The translations under genes and the position numbers were made by a program. From assembly GCA_036676495.1 (NCBI GenBank), contig JAKFCT010000028.1, forward strand, positions 64,001 to 128,000: a stretch of DNA of 64,000 bases. Direction: 5' to 3'. Below the pieces are notes generated by a model. That model did not search any database. It worked only from the letters and a program-made list of their open reading frames with translations, and was not told where the DNA came from. The stretch is from Candidatus Sericytochromatia bacterium (GTDB lineage: Bacteria; Cyanobacteriota; Sericytochromatia; S15B-MN24; UBA4093). Positions 1,071 to 47,831 of the stretch are shown piece after piece (within the stretch, counting starts at the first letter, position 1; each line of letters begins with the position of its first letter).

Positions 1071-2744
1071 CTAGCTGCCCTGACGGCGGCGAAAGAGGCG
1101 GTAATCCAGGCCCTCGAAGGGATTGTCGAGATCCTCGTAACGCTGCAACAGGCCGGCCGAGATGCCGGAATGGCCCACGGGCCCCGCGTGACTCGCCGTC
1201 GGATGAGGCTCCCAGTCCCGCAGCATGGCGGCCAGGACGTCGAAGCGCGTCTGATGTTCCCGGAAGCGCTCGATGGCATAGTCCTTCGCCTGCCCGGTCG
1301 TCACCAGGAACGGCCAATCGCTCGACTGCAGCAGCAAGAGCTCGCGGCCCAGCTGATCGAGCGTCCTGCGGAGCAAGGGATCCGGGGCCTCCTCGAAGCG
1401 ATCGGCGAGGAGTTCCATCTCGCGCTCCCGCTCATGGATCAGCGGCCAGATCCACTTGACCTGATCGTTGTTCCAGACCCAGAAATGGCCCCCCGCTCCC
1501 CAGGTGCTCTCCGGCATGCGAATGGCGGCATCTGGAGGCAACGCCTCCAGGGCTTCGGAAACCGACGTCAGCACGACATCCTTTTGCTCGCAGAGGGATC
1601 TGACGACCTGCTCCAGCCACTCCACCCCCTCGAACCACCAGTGTCCGAAGAGCTCGGTATCGAAGGGAATGGCCAGCAGGCCCTGCCGGTTGTTGTGAAG
1701 CTGATGCTCCTTCAACATGCCCGTCAGCATCTCGGCGTAATGCTTGGCATGCTCGCGGACGCGCTGCATGGCCGCCCGTGGGTCGTAGACCTCTTTGTCG
1801 GCCAGATCCACTCCCTTGCCGCTGAGGCGCCAGTATTGAAGCCCGGACTGCTCGTCCTTCTTGTGGAACTCCCGGTAGAGCGGGTCTCCCGGATACCCGT
1901 TTTCCGCCGACCAGACCTGGTAGCCGGCCCGCTGATTGCGCGCCACGACCGCGACCGAGCTGCCGTCTAGGGTATAGGGCCGAAACGTCGTGAGCCCGGT
2001 CTGAGGCACCTGAGGCCCCGAGGGGACCGACAGGGACGCATAAGGGCCGAATCCGGGCCGCCAGCCCGCCACCTGGCTTCCCTCCACCGCATGGGTGTCC
2101 ACCACGAAGAACTGCAACCCCTCCTCCTCGAGAAAGCGCTCGAGGCCGGGGCGATCGCCCTCCGCGGGACGGTAGGCACACTCGGGAAGCCAGATCCCGC
2201 GCGGAGCGCGCCCAAAATGCTTGCGATAGGTGGTCACACCCACGCGAAACTGGGCGTGAAGGCTGGAATCCCGGCTCAAGAGGGGCGAGAAGCCATGGGT
2301 GGCAGCGGAGGTGATGAGCTCGATGGCGCCCTTGTCCTGGAGGTCGCGGAATCCCTTGAGCACGTTGCGGTCGTAACGCTCCCGGAAGGCCTGGAGCTGG
2401 GAGGCGTACCAGAGCCGGTACTCGGACGCGAGCTCGCGGCGGGGATCCCCGGGGGCGAAGCGCGCGATGTCACGGTCGGCCGCCATCGTCCGGCGGATGA
2501 CGTAGTCCTCGAAGCCGGCCTGCAGGTACGGATCGGCCAGTTGCTCGGCGAGGATGGGGGTGATGCCGAGGGTGAAGCGCGCCATGAGGCCTTCGGAGGT
2601 CAGGCGGTCCAGCACGGTCAGCAGGGGGAGGTAGGTCTCGGCGATCGCCTCGTAGAGGTTCTCTTCCCCGAAGGGCCACATGCCCGCCTTGCGGTAGTAG
2701 GGCAAGTGCGAATGCAGGATGAGGGCGACGAATCCGGCCGACAT
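1071..2744 (-). CDS. GH57 1,4-alpha-glucan branching enzyme (DUF1957)
   Basis: HSHLPY, GIWLPECAY, PFDTELFGHWWFEG and ELLLLQSSDWPF motifs. Confidence 0.92.
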   Translation of the reverse strand: MSAGFVALILHSHLPYYRKAGMWPFGEENLYEAIAETYLPLLTVLDRLTSEGLMARFTLGITPILAEQLADPYLQAGFEDYVIRRTMAADRDIARFAPGDPRRELASEYRLWYASQLQAFRERYDRNVLKGFRDLQDKGAIELITSAATHGFSPLLSRDSSLHAQFRVGVTTYRKHFGRAPRGIWLPECAYRPAEGDRPGLERFLEEEGLQFFVVDTHAVEGSQVAGWRPGFGPYASLSVPSGPQVPQTGLTTFRPYTLDGSSVAVVARNQRAGYQVWSAENGYPGDPLYREFHKKDEQSGLQYWRLSGKGVDLADKEVYDPRAAMQRVREHAKHYAEMLTGMLKEHQLHNNRQGLLAIPFDTELFGHWWFEGVEWLEQVVRSLCEQKDVVLTSVSEALEALPPDAAIRMPESTWGAGGHFWVWNNDQVKWIWPLIHEREREMELLADRFEEAPDPLLRRTLDQLGRELLLLQSSDWPFLVTTGQAKDYAIERFREHQTRFDVLAAMLRDWEPHPTASHAGPVGHSGISAGLLQRYEDLDNPFEGLDYRLFRRRQGS

Positions 2745-31271: not shown

Positions 31272-31463
31272 AACTACTCCCCCCATCGCATGCCGTCGGC
31301 GCCGAAGCCGCGGGCGCTTCTCCCTGCCCCTTCTCCCCCTGGCAGGGAACCGGACTAGTATACGCTATTTTGCCCACTCCCGGCAGCGCGCGTCTCCTGG
31401 CAACTTCCGGGCGATCCGGTTACAATAGCGTCCGGCCAGTCCCGCATGCGATGAAGGTACTCC

Positions 31464-43375: not shown

Positions 43376-44153
43376 GTCCACCCGCCCTCTGACCCCCTCC
43401 AAGGCCGTGCTGTCGACCGACTCGCTGTCGGTCGGCTACGGAGGAGTCCCGGTCCTGCCCCCGCTCTCCTTCGCCGTGAGCCCGGGAGAGCTCTGGGTGC
43501 TCGCCGGCCGGAACGGCTCCGGCAAGTCCACCCTCTTGCGCACGATCCTGGGATTGCTCCCTCCGGTCGGCGGCACGCTCTCGCGCCCCCCCAGCACGAG
43601 CATCGCCTACCTGCCCCAGGTTCAGAGCCTGGATCCCATCGTCCCGATGCGGGTCTGGGACATCGTGGCCGAAGGGGTCGAATCGGGCTGGTCGTTCCTG
43701 AAGCCGCGCATCACGAGCACCCAGAAGCAGCGAATCGCCGAGGCCCTGGAGCGCACGGACACGCTATCCCTCGCCAAGCGCTCGTTCGTCGAGCTCTCAG
43801 AGGGCCAGAAGCAACGCGTGCTGTTGGCCCGCGCCATCGCCGCCTCTCCCCAGCTCCTGCTGCTCGACGAGCCCACCTCGGCCATGGACCTCAAAGCCGA
43901 GGAAGAAGCCATCCGGCGGATCGACGATCTCCGTCGCGAGCTGGGCACCGCCGTGATCCTCGTCAGCCACCACCTGCCGGCCGCCATCAAGGCCGCCGAC
44001 CACATCCTCTTCGTGGATGCCGAACACCAGGGCGTCGCCGCCGGAGGCGTCCGGGAGGTCCTCGCCGATCCCATCTTCCACCGCCAGTTCGCCGGTCTCA
44101 CCGGCGACCTCTGCGTGGACATGCTGAAAGACGGACACCGCCATGACCCCTAG
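43368..44153 (+). CDS. Metal ABC transporter ATPase, ZnuC-like
   Basis: GRNGSGKST, LSEGQKQR, LLLDEPT, VSH. Confidence 0.93.
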   Translation: MIKSTRPLTPSKAVLSTDSLSVGYGGVPVLPPLSFAVSPGELWVLAGRNGSGKSTLLRTILGLLPPVGGTLSRPPSTSIAYLPQVQSLDPIVPMRVWDIVAEGVESGWSFLKPRITSTQKQRIAEALERTDTLSLAKRSFVELSEGQKQRVLLARAIAASPQLLLLDEPTSAMDLKAEEEAIRRIDDLRRELGTAVILVSHHLPAAIKAADHILFVDAEHQGVAAGGVREVLADPIFHRQFAGLTGDLCVDMLKDGHRHDP

Positions 44154-45018
44154 CTGGCTCGATTTCATCGCGGGATGGGAGCTCTTCCGCGACCCCATCC
44201 TCTGCGGCCTCGTCGCCGGAGCCGCCCTCGGCATGCTCGGCGTCTTCATCGTGCTCCGCCGGATGGTCTTCATCTCCGCGGCACTCTCTCAAGCCGCCGG
44301 TCTGGGGGTCGCGCTCTCCTTCTTCGCCCAGATCCACCTCGGTCTTGCCGGCTTCCTCGTCGATCCCCGCCTGGGCGCCCTCGTGATGACGTTTCTGGGG
44401 GCGTGGATGCTCCGACTGGAGCCGCGCGGCAGGTTGACGCGGGAAGGAATGCTCGGCCTGGCCTATCTGGTGGCCTCGGCCGGCACGCTCATGGTCGGCA
44501 CCCGTATCTCCCAGGAAGCGCATGACATCCAGGCCATCCTCTTCGGGACCGGCGTGCTGGTGCGTCCGAGCGACACCGCCTGGGTGCTCACCTCGGCGGC
44601 CCTGGTCTTCGGCATGGTGATCTGGTGGCGGCGCGGGCTGATTTTTGCCAGCTTCGATCCGGACGGGGCTCGAGTCCGAGGGTTGCCGACCACGCTCTTG
44701 AGCCTCGCCATCCTGGGGGCGATCGCCCTGATGGTCTCCATCGCCACGCGGGCGCTGGGGGCGCTGCCGGTCTTCGCGTTCAGCATCCTGCCGGCGATCG
44801 CCGCCATTGCCCTGGCCCCCAGCCCCACCGGAGCCCTGATCCTGGCAGCATGCTTCGGCGCCCTGGGCGGCGTCGGCGGCTACCTCCTGGCCTTCTTCGG
44901 GCAGTTCCCGGTGGGCGCCAGCCAGACCCTGGTCTGCGCCATCCTCGCCGGCACCGCCTGGATCGTGCGCACGCTGATCAGCCCGAAGTCAGCCCGCCTC
45001 GCCGTACCCCGCTCCTAG
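44143..45018 (+). CDS. Metal ABC transporter permease, ZnuB-like
   Basis: LGVFIVLRRM.F...ALSQ, ILFG, SFDP..A; multiple TM segments. Confidence 0.9.
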   Translation: MTPSWLDFIAGWELFRDPILCGLVAGAALGMLGVFIVLRRMVFISAALSQAAGLGVALSFFAQIHLGLAGFLVDPRLGALVMTFLGAWMLRLEPRGRLTREGMLGLAYLVASAGTLMVGTRISQEAHDIQAILFGTGVLVRPSDTAWVLTSAALVFGMVIWWRRGLIFASFDPDGARVRGLPTTLLSLAILGAIALMVSIATRALGALPVFAFSILPAIAAIALAPSPTGALILAACFGALGGVGGYLLAFFGQFPVGASQTLVCAILAGTAWIVRTLISPKSARLAVPRS

Positions 45019-45019
45019 A

Positions 45020-45211
45020 GCGATCTTCGTTGCTGCAGGACAGCGAGCTTTGACTTTCAGCCTCTATCCATGCGGTTCTCGGTTAACGCTCGCTGCCTTT
45101 CGCAACAGCCGCGGGCGCTAGAGTAAGTGGCGCACGCATCCTTGCCTGCGCCACGGGTTCGCCGCCATCTCGCTTTACCGTCCCCCCGCTAGCGCCAACA
45201 GCGAAGACCAC
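45020..45211 (-). ncRNA. Unknown structured element, copy A
   Basis: Nested stems with G-U pairs favouring the minus strand; two cores 32/35 and 18/21 identical to copy B, with compensatory changes. Confidence 0.6.
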
Positions 45212-45275
45212 GACTGAAACACGGCCCTCGTCATTCCCGCCTTCGCGGGTACGACGGAAGGGCGGACGAAACGGG

Positions 45276-45305
45276 AAGGGGCCACCTCGATTGAGGCGGC
45301 CCCTT
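45276..45305. terminator. Terminator-like hairpin after the PLD gene
   Basis: aaggggccacctcg / tgaggcggcccctt. Confidence 0.6.
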
Positions 45306-45314
45306 CGGATTTGG

Positions 45315-46637
45315 TTAGAGGTAGTAATCGAAGATATCGAGGAGACGATTGAACGGCTGAGCGTACCAGGGATATTCCTTGAATTCGAAGACCTTGGAGG
45401 CGTTGTTCCAGTCATGGTCGAAGAGACGCGTGCGCAGGCCGCCGACGAGCGCCGGATCCGTCGTCGCGAGGCTGATTTCCTGGTTGTCGAAGAGCGCGCG
45501 CGTGTCGTGGTTCGTGGAGCCCACGGTGGCCCAGTTACCGTCGACCGCCATGTACTTGGTGTGGACATGGGCGTCGGCCGGCGTGCCGTGGTAGAGGCGG
45601 AACTCCGCGCCCAGCTTGCTCAGGGCGTTCAGCTTCACGGTGTGAAGGCGCTTGAAGACCTTGGCACTCGACTCGCCGGGAACGATGGCCTTCAGCTTGA
45701 CCCCGCGCCGCACGGCGGCGTCGAGGCGCGACAGGACGCCGTCGTCGGTCAGGTACTGCTGCTCGATGACGATCTCGGACTGCGCCTGCTCGATGGCCCG
45801 GTAGGTCATGCCGCGCGCCTCGAAGCGGCCCTCGGGGGCGCTGGTGACGTAAATCGCGGCATCCGTCCCGCCGTACTGCACGCCGGGCTGGAGGCTCGGA
45901 TACTCGAGCTTGCCGCCGCGGGCGAGCTTCCAGTCACGGGCGAACTCGCCGTGGAACTGCTGCGCCACCTCGCCCCGGAAGTCGATCAGGACGTCCTGGT
46001 CCTTGGTGTCGAAGTCGGACATGAGGTTCATGCCGCCGACCAGACCGCGATCGCCGTCCGCCAGGTAGAGCTTGCGATGCGTGATGTTGACGCCCAGGCG
46101 CTTGTCGTCCTTGCGGATACCGCGAACCGGGTAATAGCGGAACTCGACCCCGGCCTCGCGAAGCTCGGCGGCCATGGCCTTGGCTCCGGGCAGGAAGCGC
46201 GAGCCCACGTAATCCGCCAGCACCTTGACCTCGACCCCTTCCTGGGCCTTGGCCTTCAGCAAGGGAACGATGCGCTGGCCCATCGAGTCGTTTCCGAAGT
46301 TGAACGTCTCGAGGTAAAGGGTCTTGGTCGCCCCCTTGATCAGCGACTCGAGGGCCGGGACGTTTTCACGGGGCCCCACGCTCAGCGACGCCGAGTTGTT
46401 GCGCGTCCGGGGGTTGGCGTTGCGCATGGGGCGGACCGGAAGCTGGAACGTCTCCCGGGGAGCCTCGTTGAGGGACGGCCCGTCGTCGTTGAGGGAGGCC
46501 TCTCGCGAGGCTCCGCTGAAGAGGTCTTCAGCGGTCGTCGGTACGGTCTGGGGCTGCACGCCGCAGCTCGCCAAGAGCATCACCGAAAGGGCAGGGGCCA
46601 CCCAACGCGCCGCGGGCTTGAAGGGCTTGGTCGTCAT
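45315..46637 (-). CDS. Phospholipase D / cardiolipin-synthase-like lipoprotein
   Basis: Two HKD motifs (HRKLYLAD..GGMN, HTKYMAVD..GSTN); lipobox LASC. Confidence 0.9.
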   Translation of the reverse strand: MTTKPFKPAARWVAPALSVMLLASCGVQPQTVPTTAEDLFSGASREASLNDDGPSLNEAPRETFQLPVRPMRNANPRTRNNSASLSVGPRENVPALESLIKGATKTLYLETFNFGNDSMGQRIVPLLKAKAQEGVEVKVLADYVGSRFLPGAKAMAAELREAGVEFRYYPVRGIRKDDKRLGVNITHRKLYLADGDRGLVGGMNLMSDFDTKDQDVLIDFRGEVAQQFHGEFARDWKLARGGKLEYPSLQPGVQYGGTDAAIYVTSAPEGRFEARGMTYRAIEQAQSEIVIEQQYLTDDGVLSRLDAAVRRGVKLKAIVPGESSAKVFKRLHTVKLNALSKLGAEFRLYHGTPADAHVHTKYMAVDGNWATVGSTNHDTRALFDNQEISLATTDPALVGGLRTRLFDHDWNNASKVFEFKEYPWYAQPFNRLLDIFDYYL

Positions 46638-46729
46638 CAACTTCTCCCTCATTCAAGAGCCAGAGATCCTGCTTCACATGGCCACGGGGACCGGGCCGGT
46701 TCGTACTAGATTAACAGGCAAACGAACAA

Positions 46730-46759
46730 AAGTAAAGATATCCTTAAGGCGAGGTTAAC
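46730..46759 (-). promoter_or_regulatory. Pho-box-like triple direct repeat upstream of the PLD gene
   Basis: GTTAACCT-cgc-CTTAAGGA-tat-CTTTACTT (11-bp period), followed by an extended -10 TGtTAATCT. Confidence 0.5.
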
Positions 46760-46837
46760 GATCCAGTCCTGGTGCCTGTCGAGCGGGGTTCACCTCTGGT
46801 ATACTGGGAAGAGCCCCCGCTTCCGAGAGGAAAAATC

Positions 46838-47284
46838 ATGCCTTACGCCGAGGACGCCCTCCGCATCCTCAAGAGCCGCGGATACCGGATCACCCAACCT
46901 CGCCGCAAGGTCCTCGAACTGCTCGAAAAGACCGAGACGGCGCTTTCACCGTACGAGATCAAGGATCTCCTGGACGCGGCGGGCGAGCGCGTGGACACGG
47001 TCAGCATCTACCGCATCCTCGAATGCCTCGAGGACAACCACCTGATCCACCGGGTCCTCACCTCGGGCAAGGTCCACAAATGCGACCTCGAAAGCGAGGA
47101 CCACTGCCACCTGGAGCAGGAGGACCACTGTCATCACAACCTCATCTGCCGCTCCTGCGGCGCGATCGAGGAGGTCCACTGTCCCGGCCTGAGCCCCATG
47201 GAAGCCGAGCTGGCAAAGCAGGCAGGCTTCACGATCGAGGCGCATCACCTGGAGTTCAGCGGCCTCTGCCGGAAATGTAGCTGA
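46838..47284 (+). CDS. zur: Fur-family regulator, probably Zur
   Basis: GYRITQPR, SIYRIL, HHNLICRSCG, FSGLCRKC; embedded in the zinc cluster. Confidence 0.85.
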   Translation: MPYAEDALRILKSRGYRITQPRRKVLELLEKTETALSPYEIKDLLDAAGERVDTVSIYRILECLEDNHLIHRVLTSGKVHKCDLESEDHCHLEQEDHCHHNLICRSCGAIEEVHCPGLSPMEAELAKQAGFTIEAHHLEFSGLCRKCS

Positions 47285-47318
47285 GCCCGCGAGACGGCCG
47301 GCTCCGGGAGGGTATCTC

Positions 47319-47490
47319 AACCCTGCTGCATCTAGGTTCGGATCCGGAGGTAGGATGAGCCCTACAGGGAGCTCCTCGGAACGGAGCAAGCCTAGCGCCT
47401 GCGGCTCTTCCGAAAGGCAGCGAGCGAGGGCGAAACGCACGTGACGACGACGGTCGTGCGTATCGCTCGCTGGCCTGCAGGAAGGGCGTT
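47319..47490 (+). ncRNA. Unknown structured element, copy B
   Basis: Same conserved cores and stem topology as copy A; ends about 10 nt before the RBS of the His-rich gene. Confidence 0.6.
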
Positions 47491-47513
47491 AGCCATCGGA
47501 AAGGAGCGAGTCC

Positions 47514-47831
47514 ATGGAATGCCAGACCCATGACCAGCACTCCCACGTCCACGGCGACGCCTGTGGACATCCCGGCATCCGGCACCAGGATCACGTCGAC
47601 TACCTGCATGACGGCCACTTGCATCATGCCCATGCGGGTCACGTCGACGAGCATCGCCTGGAGGTGAACGCGGCCAATCCCGCCGACTGCAAGCCCATGG
47701 TCTGTAGGGAAACCCACGACATGGCGATTCCCCATGGGGATCACGTCGACTATCTCAGCAACAACGGCCATCTTCATCGTCGCCACCTCGACCACTGCGA
47801 TGATCATGGCCCGGTCACGCTGCTCCAGTAA
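47514..47831 (+). CDS. Small His/Cys-rich metal-binding protein with duplicated HxDHVDYL..GHLH motif
   Basis: RBS aaaggag; internal repeat HQDHVDYLHDGHLH / HGDHVDYLSNNGHLH. Confidence 0.85.
   Translation: MECQTHDQHSHVHGDACGHPGIRHQDHVDYLHDGHLHHAHAGHVDEHRLEVNAANPADCKPMVCRETHDMAIPHGDHVDYLSNNGHLHRRHLDHCDDHGPVTLLQ

Follow-up and report, generated by a model that had tools for sequence, protein, structure and literature searches.

Copies A and B, two related structured elements placed in inverted orientation around the PLD and zur genes in the 64,000-nt stretch of DNA analysed here (the window), are probably lineage-specific insertions, independent of each other, of a small non-autonomous mobile repeat that is non-coding and MITE- or REP-like in kind. 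About 100 copies of this repeat are present in the genome, and it is also dispersed through the closest relatives, which marks the two as ordinary repetitive DNA and not as a dedicated switch of zinc genes. The positions of both copies, of their parts and of the adjoining gene signals are listed in Table 1.

Table 1. Positions of copies A and B, their components and adjoining gene signals in the window
Feature	Position	Strand	Basis or remark
Copy A, long form, subfamily 1	45016..45120	minus	nhmmer and covariance model R1
Copy A, element proper	45018-45118	minus	TA flanks at 45119-45120 (head side) and 45016-45017 (tail side)
Copy A, head box AGCGCCCGCGGCT	45107..45119	minus	predicted single-stranded; nearly invariant family-wide
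Copy A, hairpin	45029..45106	minus	pair counts, RNAalifold, single-sequence fold
Copy A, P1	45102-45106 with 45029-45033	minus	
Copy A, P2	45096-45098 with 45037-45039	minus	
Copy A, P3	45088-45095 with 45041-45048	minus	
Copy A, 38-nt loop	45049-45086	minus	
TAG stop of ABC-3 (ZnuB-like) permease gene	45016..45018	plus	within the tail-side CTAG of copy A; gene at 44143-45018, identified by Pfam ABC-3
Copy B, divergent long form	47392..47497	plus	nhmmer 50.9 bits; R1 86.3 bits
Copy B, head box AGCGCCTGCGGCT	47394..47406	plus	sequence and family alignment
Copy B, hairpin	47407..47484	plus	pair counts, folds, alignment
Copy B, P1	47407-47411 with 47480-47484	plus	CTTCC/GGAAG
Copy B, P2	47415-47417 with 47474-47476	plus	
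Copy B, P3	47418-47425 with 47465-47472	plus	
Copy B, 38-nt loop	47427-47464	plus	8 of 38 positions as in copy A
Native Shine-Dalgarno AAAGGAG and ATG of His-rich gene	47500..47516	plus	directly after copy B, outside the element

Copy number and distribution

In the 4.1-Mb genome that contains the window (G000), A and B are two of 109 nhmmer matches at 91 loci (E<=1e-3, after three rounds). The repeat unit is modular and measures 50-129 nt; the matches, partial ones included, span 36-129 nt and comprise 46 short forms, 7 of 82-86 nt, 36 long forms, 11 of 116-129 nt and 9 partial copies. Direct tandem arrays are present at 14 of the loci, and 102 of the 109 matches are intergenic according to a crude ORF caller. 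Copy A is the best nhmmer match (108 bits), ranks among the top matches of the R1 covariance model (123 bits) and has near-identical copies on contigs C88, C91, C45 and C20. The sequence-only reading had listed a small mobile element among its alternatives, and had named dozens of ordinary REP/MITE-like copies as the observation that would contradict its own view of the structure; the 109 matches at 91 loci behave as such copies.

The R1 model has matches in 6 of the 27 genomes of the order and none in the other 21. The family is abundant in G000 (93 matches) and in two congeneric genomes, G002 (84) and G001 (45); few matches come from G008 (7), G005 (3) and G003 (1), which belong to two other genera. 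An exact 28-nt head-plus-stem pattern is found in 35 stretches of a species-representative genome collection, all of them within two MAG records of Candidatus Sericytochromatia bacterium, and is absent from the viral contigs searched. Plasmid and phage collections gave no match to the family by blastn at distant settings. As the sequence-only reading had supposed, no known RNA family is recognised: Rfam 15 gave no match in the whole window at the gathering thresholds, and at E<=10 only four chance-level matches around A and B (E 2-7.4; 15-19 bits against thresholds of 44-95.5). A literature search found no paper joining Sericytochromatia with miniature inverted-repeat or repetitive extragenic palindromic elements. 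This is apparently a repeat family of Sericytochromatia-type bacteria that has not yet been described, and it is likely to be confined to a single family-rank clade of them.

Architecture and conserved structure

In the unit, a (C/T)TAG end is followed by the invariant 13-nt head box AGCGCCYGCGGCT, then by an interrupted hairpin of 16 bp and a short tail with GCTCTAG at its end. The hairpin is tipped by a GCGNAGC mini-loop, variable only at N, in the short forms and by a 38-nt loop in the long forms. At the termini, the inverted repeat is limited to an imperfect CTAG(C/A)GC of about 7 nt at the extreme ends, and the strong 16-bp inverted repeat is internal, 15 nt inside the ends. The tail end of copy B is degenerate, with GCCATCGG in place of GCTCTAGG. 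Re-examination of the sequence recovered the two conserved cores of the earlier description where it had placed them, with three differences in each; four of the six form two compensatory swaps (GTTGC/GCAAC in A, CTTCC/GGAAG in B), and 38 nt separate the cores in A as in B. The P1 type of copy B is similar to that of UUUCC/GGAAA copies in other genera.

The helix GTTKC/AGG/CAGCGAGM is valid across the whole family. Pairing in its 16-bp stem is 99%, with compensatory changes; over 40 aligned copies, helix 1 is paired in 99.5% and helix 2 in 98.9%. Both-side changes occur at columns 24/96 (UA 20, GC 19, CG 1), at columns 39/80 (CG 28, AU 7, GC 3) and, with CG in copy B only, at columns 21/99. 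The covariation score is 0.132, which none of 500 shuffles reaches (0.044 in shuffles), and slid partners give at most 0.056. The proposal that the structure is conserved under selection thus stands for the main hairpin, where compensatory pairs are seen within the genus and more of them in other genera. The second variable region in an arm closed by CTAG/CTAG, and the closing stem that was to complete a three-way junction, lie outside the repeated unit, since every family alignment ends at the CTAG termini. The segments concerned (45122-45314 and 47285-47391) have no second full-length copy anywhere in the genome, and the DNA upstream of copy B is native to this intergenic region and is also conserved in two relatives without B. 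The assignment of A to the minus and B to the plus strand is correct as a head-to-tail orientation, but the argument from G-U pairs is weak: among 1037 cells of the main stem in 61 distinct long copies, there are 6 GU/UG and 6 AC/CA. That strand is favoured only by the RNAalifold pair U20-G100 (36 of 40) and by a putative head-loop helix.

In 38 of 40 copies the length of the 38-nt loop is kept while its sequence drifts, such that identity between copies is 5-28 of 38 positions in the loop and 44-54 of 55 in the scaffold. Within subfamilies the insert is near-identical and common to many copies, as expected of copy-amplified homologous sequence rather than of a guide specific to each locus. 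An inner 3-bp hairpin of the loop (columns 68-70 with 76-78) is paired in just 60%, and single-sequence folds of the loop are not alike between subfamilies. The putative pseudoknot between head box and loop is paired to 91.7%; 28 of 40 copies have a G-U in it, and a single both-side change is seen. It is conserved more than covarying, and we regard it as only an idea.

The head box is the best-conserved part of the unit. Its exact 12-mer occurs 176 times in the genome, compared with 19 for the reversed control, and it is also found alone and in 19-21-nt tandem arrays. Of the solo head boxes, 23 lie at most 60 nt ahead of a start codon in the same orientation, in many cases with 5-25 nt between box and Shine-Dalgarno sequence, and 32 are instead directed at gene ends. 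A search for a distant pair of head box and tail motif framing a gene produced no convincing pair; the 272 one-mismatch 'solo heads' listed in it are mostly noise or short units. Together, the compensatory changes, the invariant head box and the loop held in length suggest constraints beyond simple end-binding by a transposase.

Insertion sites and genomic context

The congeneric genomes G001 and G002 share the ABC-PLD-zur-His-rich gene order, and both are without A and B. The site of copy B measures 84-88 nt in G002/G001 versus 211 nt in G000, and the sequences align to either side of the insert. In the soil and groundwater DNA sequencing runs, contigs from X1 and X5 lack 47286-47497 and have 83 other letters in its place. 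Copy B ends 2 nt ahead of the Shine-Dalgarno sequence of the His-rich gene, which, together with the ATG, is also present in both relatives without the copy. In the reverse comparison, 26 copies of the relatives have both flanks on one G000 contig, and the corresponding sites are empty in 15 cases, occupied in 2 and unclear in 9. The relatives also lack the young copies that G000 has on C88 and C91.

Near-identical copies share identity from TAG to CTA, and the bases that flank this identity vary (C, C, A, C, C before; G, G, G, A, G after). Nearly all intact copies are flanked by TA. Six clean empty sites have a single TA (CTAG three times, TTAA, ATAA and TTAG), with TA on both sides of the filled sites. 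Among about 14 informative empty sites, TA is found in 6-7 and CA, AA, CG or TG in 7; TGA stop codons account for two of these seven, as well as for the G002 allele of the mixed site A, where the stop of the permease gene is TGA in G002 and TAG in G001. The empty site of copy B has no TA, and several empty sites read YTC^AGG.

The element probably inserts at TA in CTAG. In the mechanism that we propose, a transposase acting in trans would insert the unit at a TA, preferably within CTAG/YTAR, and the insertion would duplicate the TA. As the unit begins with G and finishes with C, either junction would rebuild TAG, so that insertions at TAG or TAA stops, or at a TA before a ribosome-binding site, would not alter the proteins encoded next to them and would persist. 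The PLD, zur and His-rich genes would likewise be unaffected by A and B. Head-to-tail arrays could result from repeated insertion at a flanking TA or from slippage, and the hairpin may be kept by selection or by palindrome correction because this form is recognised or tolerated. A model without duplication, in which a unit TAGCGCC..GCTCT is inserted at Y^AGG, fits the empty sites of the Shine-Dalgarno and TGA types but fails at loci L101, L120 and L108; we neither adopt nor reject it.

A stop codon of a neighbouring gene lies inside a CTAG terminus at 37 of the 91 loci, the stop codons in 39 termini being TAG in 37, TAA in 1 and TGA in 1. Similarly, six of the empty G000 counterparts of insertions in the relatives are on a stop codon and a seventh is beside one. 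The loci occupy 46 tandem, 26 convergent and 11 divergent gaps, and the convergent ones are over-represented (26 of the 83 intergenic loci versus 479 of 2735 gaps; p=0.002). Orientation to the genes is unbiased (sense 19, antisense 27; p=0.30), and neither the comparison with GC skew (25 on the G-rich strand versus 35; p=0.25) nor that with the majority gene strand (21 versus 13; p=0.23) is significant. Twenty genes downstream of head boxes belong to unrelated Pfam families, and a regulon test on such genes revealed no common function.

Affinities, mobilisation and alternative readings

Bacterial hairpin MITEs that duplicate TA include the Correia elements of Neisseria, RUP of Streptococcus pneumoniae and derivatives of IS630/Tc1-mariner; the target of IS630 is TA within CTAG. 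The family resembles them in being non-coding and intergenic, about 50-150 nt long and folded as a hairpin, in having tens to hundreds of copies with long and internally deleted short forms, and in having TA at both ends, a preference for CTAG and positions that vary among close relatives. It departs from them, and from a textbook MITE, in having a terminal repeat of just about 7 nt and its strong inverted repeat inside the unit. Two further differences from the named elements are the unpaired head box of 13 nt, which is conserved best of all parts and is found solo or in tandem as well, and the empty sites, just about half of which fit a duplication of TA. Of the features that define MITEs, the family has small, non-coding, dispersed copies and presence/absence at orthologous sites, and an autonomous element with the same ends was not found in the draft assemblies of this and related genomes. 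Other repeats offer partial parallels. ERIC/IRU is an imperfect palindrome of about 127 nt in enterobacteria, with size variants produced by internal indels at fixed places, and MIRU are mycobacterial intergenic units, often in tandem, with ends that overlap flanking stop or start codons and oriented with the operon. The family is likewise an imperfect palindrome with size variants and, as in MIRU, its ends overlap the stop codons of neighbours and tandem copies occur; however, its sequence is unrelated to both, and its copies are not oriented with the operon.

Searches of draft MAG assemblies for Y1_Tnp, TnpB, IS110, DDE_3 (IS630), DDE_Tnp_1, DDE_Tnp_4, DDE_Tnp_1_3, DDE_Tnp_1_6 and RVT_1 revealed none that has the ends of the element or tracks its presence. 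An IS630-type gene was found in neither G000 nor G002, and only as a 136-aa remnant in G001. DDE_Tnp_1 and DDE_3 are degenerate remnants, and IS1182-like genes are present in G001, G002, G003 and G006; in neither case are the ends common with the element. Transposases of the IS982 and IS5/IS1182 types, also looked for, have no link to the family. One G001 copy adjoins an IS1182-like gene, but the sequence that comes next is unlike the head of the element. The earlier statement that no recombinase, nuclease or RT lies in the window was contradicted by nothing that we found. Across the six genomes that hold the element, all taken as draft MAGs, no known transposase family tracks it.

If the family were of the REP/REPIN type, an HUH tyrosine transposase (RAYT or IS200/IS605-type) would recognise its hairpin in single-stranded DNA, and the units would multiply into BIME-like mosaics and arrays. 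This would agree with the compensatory changes in the hairpin, the modular, arrayed architecture, the TA missing from half of the empty sites and a tip that varies only at N, as expected of a GNA mini-hairpin, which is stable in DNA. One RAYT-like gene is present, on C48, but it is flanked by a different repeat of 34-45 nt (GGGGCGGGCC..GCCCGCC type, 42 copies) and was rejected as the partner. Y1_Tnp is present in G000, G001, G002 and G006 but was not found in G003, G005 and G008, all of which have copies of the repeat. Neither the G-rich strand nor the majority gene strand is preferred, and GU and AC cells of the stem are equal in number. PATEs, which are palindrome-associated elements derived from IS200/IS605, show strand-biased insertion without duplication and a fixed 4-5-nt target 5' of one end. 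The family has no strand bias, half of its empty sites are without TA, and several read YTC^AGG; a Y1 enzyme matching the element as a PATE partner was not found in the draft assemblies.

According to Di Nocera, De Gregorio and Rocco (2013; PMC3733652), REPs lie mainly between unidirectional and convergent ORFs, downstream of coding regions, and are short palindromes, one end of which bears an unpaired GTAG or CGTC tag. The family is similar to REP, BIME and REPIN sequences as a set of small palindromic intergenic repeats, mostly after genes and in tandem or convergent gaps, that are mosaic and clustered; several repeat types per genome, and families without a dedicated transposase, are further points in common. 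It is different in its unit length (50-129 nt versus 20-40 nt) and in its arrays, which are direct and not inverted dimers. The palindrome has no GTAG or CGTC tag at its end: the ends read YTAG followed by the 13-nt box, and GTAG is present only in the internal loop of some subfamilies. A REP/REPIN identity is, on this balance, unlikely.

A structured RNA module with a function in transcripts, whether cis-regulatory or as a small RNA, and perhaps distributed by transposition, is a quite improbable explanation. Its head box and hairpin would serve, for instance, to stabilise or process mRNA or to control how the downstream gene is translated, such as the His-rich gene beside copy B. Covariation in the stem, the invariant head box, the fixed loop length and the possible pseudoknot are in its favour, as are the 23 solo head boxes upstream of starts and the position of copy B just ahead of the His-rich gene. 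However, no Rfam family matches, the sense strand is not preferred, 32 solo boxes point at gene ends, the downstream genes are functionally unrelated, the congeners lack A and B at the locus and retain the Shine-Dalgarno sequence and ATG without B, the pseudoknot has a single both-side change, and the internal loop folds vary by subfamily. It is very unlikely, in our estimate, that the unit, instead of deriving from ordinary transposase ends, is a self-spreading structured module of which the head box and 38-nt loop are read by an unrecognised protein, either a recombinase of folded strands, possibly using the loop as a specificity or guide segment, or a host RNA- or DNA-binding factor that could be recruited genome-wide by the dispersed head boxes, which are found on stop codons and, at a distance of 5-25 nt, ahead of many ribosome-binding sites.

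Almost no credence is given to a guide- or bridge-type RNA, or to a pair of recombination sites, by which a recombinase would be programmed, for instance so as to flip the 2.3-kb PLD-zur segment. The scaffold, conserved around a variable 38-nt loop, and the inverted placement of A and B speak for it, but DEDD_Tnp_IS110 was not found in G000, RT was not found in G000 or G001, and the sole TnpB-like locus, on C100, has no copy beside it. The loops are common to many members of a subfamily, and the two relatives without A and B have the same gene order. No credible inversion between A and B was found in the contigs sequenced from soil and groundwater DNA; A-B joints are few, with just 21-35 letters on each side, and fit other copies as well, and an apparent 'skip' of 45044-45090 represents short-form copies aligned to copy A. 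The occurrence at 91 loci beside unrelated genes, the lack of orientation bias and the absence from the congeners' locus also speak against the metal-sensing leader tied to PLD and zur. A false lead is thereby removed, as neither a zinc-sensing leader nor a guide RNA next to PLD, zur and the His-rich gene is supported.

For the mobile repeat that we favour, the invariant head box, the solo and tandem copies and the loop of fixed length provide handles for finding the enzyme or a binding protein. In annotation, the family also accounts for breaks between contigs, for 'conserved structure' signals that are spurious and for inflated read depth, which is 20-fold at 44970-45103.

Identity of copies A and B

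We conclude that copies A and B belong, as ordinary members, to a family of mobile hairpin repeats that is undescribed and restricted to one clade, and that their placement around PLD and zur is coincidental. Reading of positions 44800-47700, with A (minus) aligned to B (plus), bore out both cores of the sequence-only reading, with three differences per core. Four of these six differences are the compensatory swaps GTTGC/GCAAC (A) and CTTCC/GGAAG (B), and the inter-core spacer is 38 nt in both copies. The neighboring genes are also as first described (see the table below). No known RNA family had been recognized, and a search of the whole window against Rfam at gathering thresholds likewise returned no matches; around A and B there were just four chance-level matches (E 2-7.4). 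The second arm and closing stem proposed to lie outside the cores do not belong to the element, as the family alignments all end at CTAG, and the outer DNA has no repeat elsewhere.

The order of the permease, PLD, Fur-family and His-rich genes is kept at 82-88% identity in two congeneric genomes (G001 and G002), and both copies are absent from the syntenic locus in each. Site B spans 84-88 nt in these relatives vs 211 nt in the genome under study (G000), and the sequences align on either side of the insert, and contigs of a related organism from two soil runs span the site without B. The DNA upstream of B is native spacer, kept in relatives without B. This spacer is conserved in G001 and G002 (e.g., GGAGGTAGGATGAGC..CAGGGAGCTCC), and the true regulatory signal of the His-rich gene may sit in it. 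On the other side of the PLD gene, CTAGCGCC may be a chance resemblance or a decayed head box that faces the other way from copy A. Another short palindrome, the third type of repeat seen, is ATTCCC-N8-GGGAAT-like (here cattcccgccttcgcgggtacgac) and has about 22 further genome copies at ≤3 mismatches; the pattern is reminiscent of Neisseria dRS3.

Positions of the repeats, genes and related features
Feature	Location	Position	Strand	Remark
Solo head box	window	31306-31317	minus	no hairpin; 19 nt before PHP-domain gene
ABC ATPase and ABC-3 permease	window	permease ends 45018		
Permease stop codon (TAG)	window	45016-45018		part of tail-side CTAG of copy A
Copy A	window	45016-45120	minus	
CTAGCGCC	window	45189-45200	plus	followed by unrelated sequence
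cattcccgccttcgcgggtacgac	window	45233-45257		between copy A and PLD gene end
PLD-domain gene	window	45315-46652	minus	
Fur-family gene	window	46838-47284		
Conserved spacer	window	47300-47391		Fur-family gene to His-rich gene, upstream of B
Copy B	window	47392-47497	plus	
His-rich ORF	window	47514-47831		
ZIP transporter	window		minus	
Solo/tandem head boxes	G000	C11:3630-3680; C101:5181-5240; C82:51760-51820; C28:169664-169710		no hairpin
Short-form unit	G000	C59:51141-51204		example of GCGNAGC tip
RAYT-like Y1 transposase ORF	G000 C48 (L011)	L011:1324-1806		160 aa
GGTGTTTGTGGGGCGGGCCTCTGTGCCCGCC-type repeats	G000 C48 (L011)	L011:1151-1281 and 1814-1855		inverted, flanking the RAYT-like ORF
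TnpB-like (Cas12f1-like_TNB) gene	G000 (L012)	C100:49173-49367		single gene, near contig end
Degenerate repeat copy	G001 C47 (L078)	L078:1560-1700		~50 nt upstream of 463-aa IS1182-like transposase ORF, contig end

Forms, hairpin and head box of the family

The G000 assembly comprises 4,135,875 bases in 106 contigs (66% G+C). A fuzzy search with one core gave dozens of copies, and nhmmer, run for three rounds, returned 56, 104 and finally 109 matches, which collapse to 91 loci when neighbors are merged; 14 of the 91 hold direct head-to-tail arrays of 2-4 units each. The matches include a short form (46 matches, 50-71 nt) with the hairpin tip CAGCG-N-AGCTG, a long form of the A and B type with a 38-nt loop (36 matches, 95-109 nt), classes of 82-86 nt (7 matches) and 116-129 nt (11 matches) in which an additional internal module opens with a second head-like box, and 9 partial copies. 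Within the short-form tip, GCGNAGC, N (A, T or C) is the sole varying base. This shape matches the GNA mini-hairpin, which is known for its stability, and points to a possible importance of the fold in single-stranded DNA or RNA.

Of 41 related genomes examined by BLAST, 5 contain the repeat. Forty copies were used to build a covariance model, which was run on 27 genomes of the order and gave matches in six, namely three of the same genus (G000, 93; G002, 84; G001, 45) and three that share the family but fall in two other genera (G008, 7; G005, 3; G003, 1), and none in the remaining 21. An exact 28-nt pattern occurred in 35 stretches of a species-representative genome collection, all from a pair of MAG records that bear the title Candidatus Sericytochromatia bacterium. 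The repeat was not found in the viral contigs, phages and plasmids searched, and our literature search found no paper joining Sericytochromatia with MITE or REP terms.

The inference of a conserved structure held. Across an alignment of 40 copies drawn from three genomes, the 16-bp stem (P1, 5 bp; P2, 3 bp; P3, 8 bp) is ~99% paired, three stem pairs show changes on both sides, and the covariation score is matched by none of 500 shuffles and by none of the slid controls. RNAalifold recovers the same stem, and copies from other genera contribute UUUCC/GGAAA in P1 and GGG/CCC in P2. The G-U pairs once taken as a strand signal do not serve as one in the stem, where 61 copies have 6 GU/UG vs 6 AC/CA. 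The loop is 38 nt long in 38 of the 40 copies and 36-39 nt in other genera. Between subfamilies, identity is 5-28 of 38 positions in the loop vs 44-54 of 55 in the scaffold. Inside a subfamily the loops are near-identical and are therefore inherited, not per-locus guides. No shared fold of the loop was found in aligned copies or single-sequence folds.

The 12-mer GCGCCYGCGGCT of the 13-nt head box occurs 176 times in G000 vs 19 for the reversed control, with 66 occurrences in hairpin units, 95 alone in intergenic DNA and 15 in ORFs. It is kept in other genera (29 matches vs 2 for the control in G008). Tandem arrays with a period of 19-21 nt are common among solo boxes; 23 of the solo boxes precede a start codon of the same orientation by ≤60 nt, mostly lying 5-25 nt ahead of the Shine-Dalgarno sequence, and 32 face a gene end within 60 nt. 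The functions of twenty genes downstream of head boxes are unrelated, and the box is therefore no operator of a regulon. The head box may form a helix with the first part of the loop, as judged from conservation.

Insertion sites and stop codons

Among 26 relatives' copies with both flanks on one G000 contig, the site is empty in G000 in 15 cases, occupied in 2 and unclear in 9. A second batch contributed L101, L103, L108 and L120 as further clean empty sites, and in it one site, L104, was shared with C25. Decayed remnants were seen at a few "empty" sites (L043, L068), and two young G000 copies (C88, C91) are missing at the relatives' orthologous sites.

In near-identical copies, identity runs from TAG to CTA and the bases outside vary. 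On the head side, 38 copies have NCTA and 20 have NTTA; the tail side is TAGG, TAGA or TAAG in 32 of 44. Duplication of a TA upon insertion predicts a single TA in empty sites, which was found at six clean ones (CTAG three times, TTAA, ATAA and TTAG). No TA was seen at seven others, which have CA before a Shine-Dalgarno sequence (L019), a TGA stop where the filled genome has TAG (L022, L023), TG (L108), AA (C91), no clear reading (C88) or simply no TA (B); at site A the two congeners differ, G001 having TAG and G002 TGA. Because some loss of TA is expected at 12-17% divergence, TA duplication is still the mechanism we tentatively favor.

According to a crude ORF caller (3351 ORFs, 85% coding), 102 of the 109 matches are intergenic. 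The loci fall in tandem gaps (27 antisense and 19 sense to the genes), convergent gaps (26), divergent gaps (11), genes (6) and contig ends (2). The loci favor convergent gaps (26 of 83 intergenic loci vs 479 of 2735 gaps, p=0.002), with no bias between sense and antisense (19 vs 27, p=0.30), nor of orientation with respect to GC skew (25 vs 35) or local gene strand (21 vs 13). At 37 of the 91 loci a neighbor's stop codon lies within the element terminus, and 37 of 39 stop-bearing termini use TAG. Since G is the first base of the unit and C its last, a TA joined to a unit end would read TAG on either strand, and stop codons would thereby be rebuilt. Stop codons also mark the empty G000 sites that correspond to relatives' insertions: TAG at L103 and L120, TAA at L010 and at L063, where it belongs to two convergent genes, and TGA at L022 and L023; the site of L101 adjoins a TAG. 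Some other copies, including B, finish right before a Shine-Dalgarno sequence. Genome-wide, the same crude caller gave 1309 TAG, 1049 TGA and 945 TAA stops; TAG as the commonest stop is unusual at 66% G+C.

Likeness to known repeats and candidate mobilizing enzymes

TA-targeting MITEs are a published kind of element that the family resembles. It also resembles REPs as these are described in PMC3733652. The remaining value of the family lies in its invariant head box, the solo arrays of that box and the length-locked loop.

The searches for a mobilizing enzyme gave none for this family. No IS110, IS630-type, Harbinger-like or RT genes were found in the draft G000 genome. Ends in common with the element are lacking in the TnpB-like gene, in a remnant of DDE_Tnp_1 type and in the IS1182-like genes of relatives, and the presence of Y1 genes does not track the element. 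As all searched genomes are drafts, a missing insertion sequence proves little. At the TnpB-like locus on C100 no TnpA was detected and no repeat copy is present, and common ends could not be shown between the L078 repeat copy and its IS1182-like neighbor. The RAYT-like gene on C48 is bracketed by a different repeat of its own. This GGTGTTTGTGGGGCGGGCCTCTGTGCCCGCC-type repeat has 42 genome copies at ≤3 mismatches, and repeat and gene together have the appearance of a classical REP/RAYT pair that is distinct from the hairpin family.
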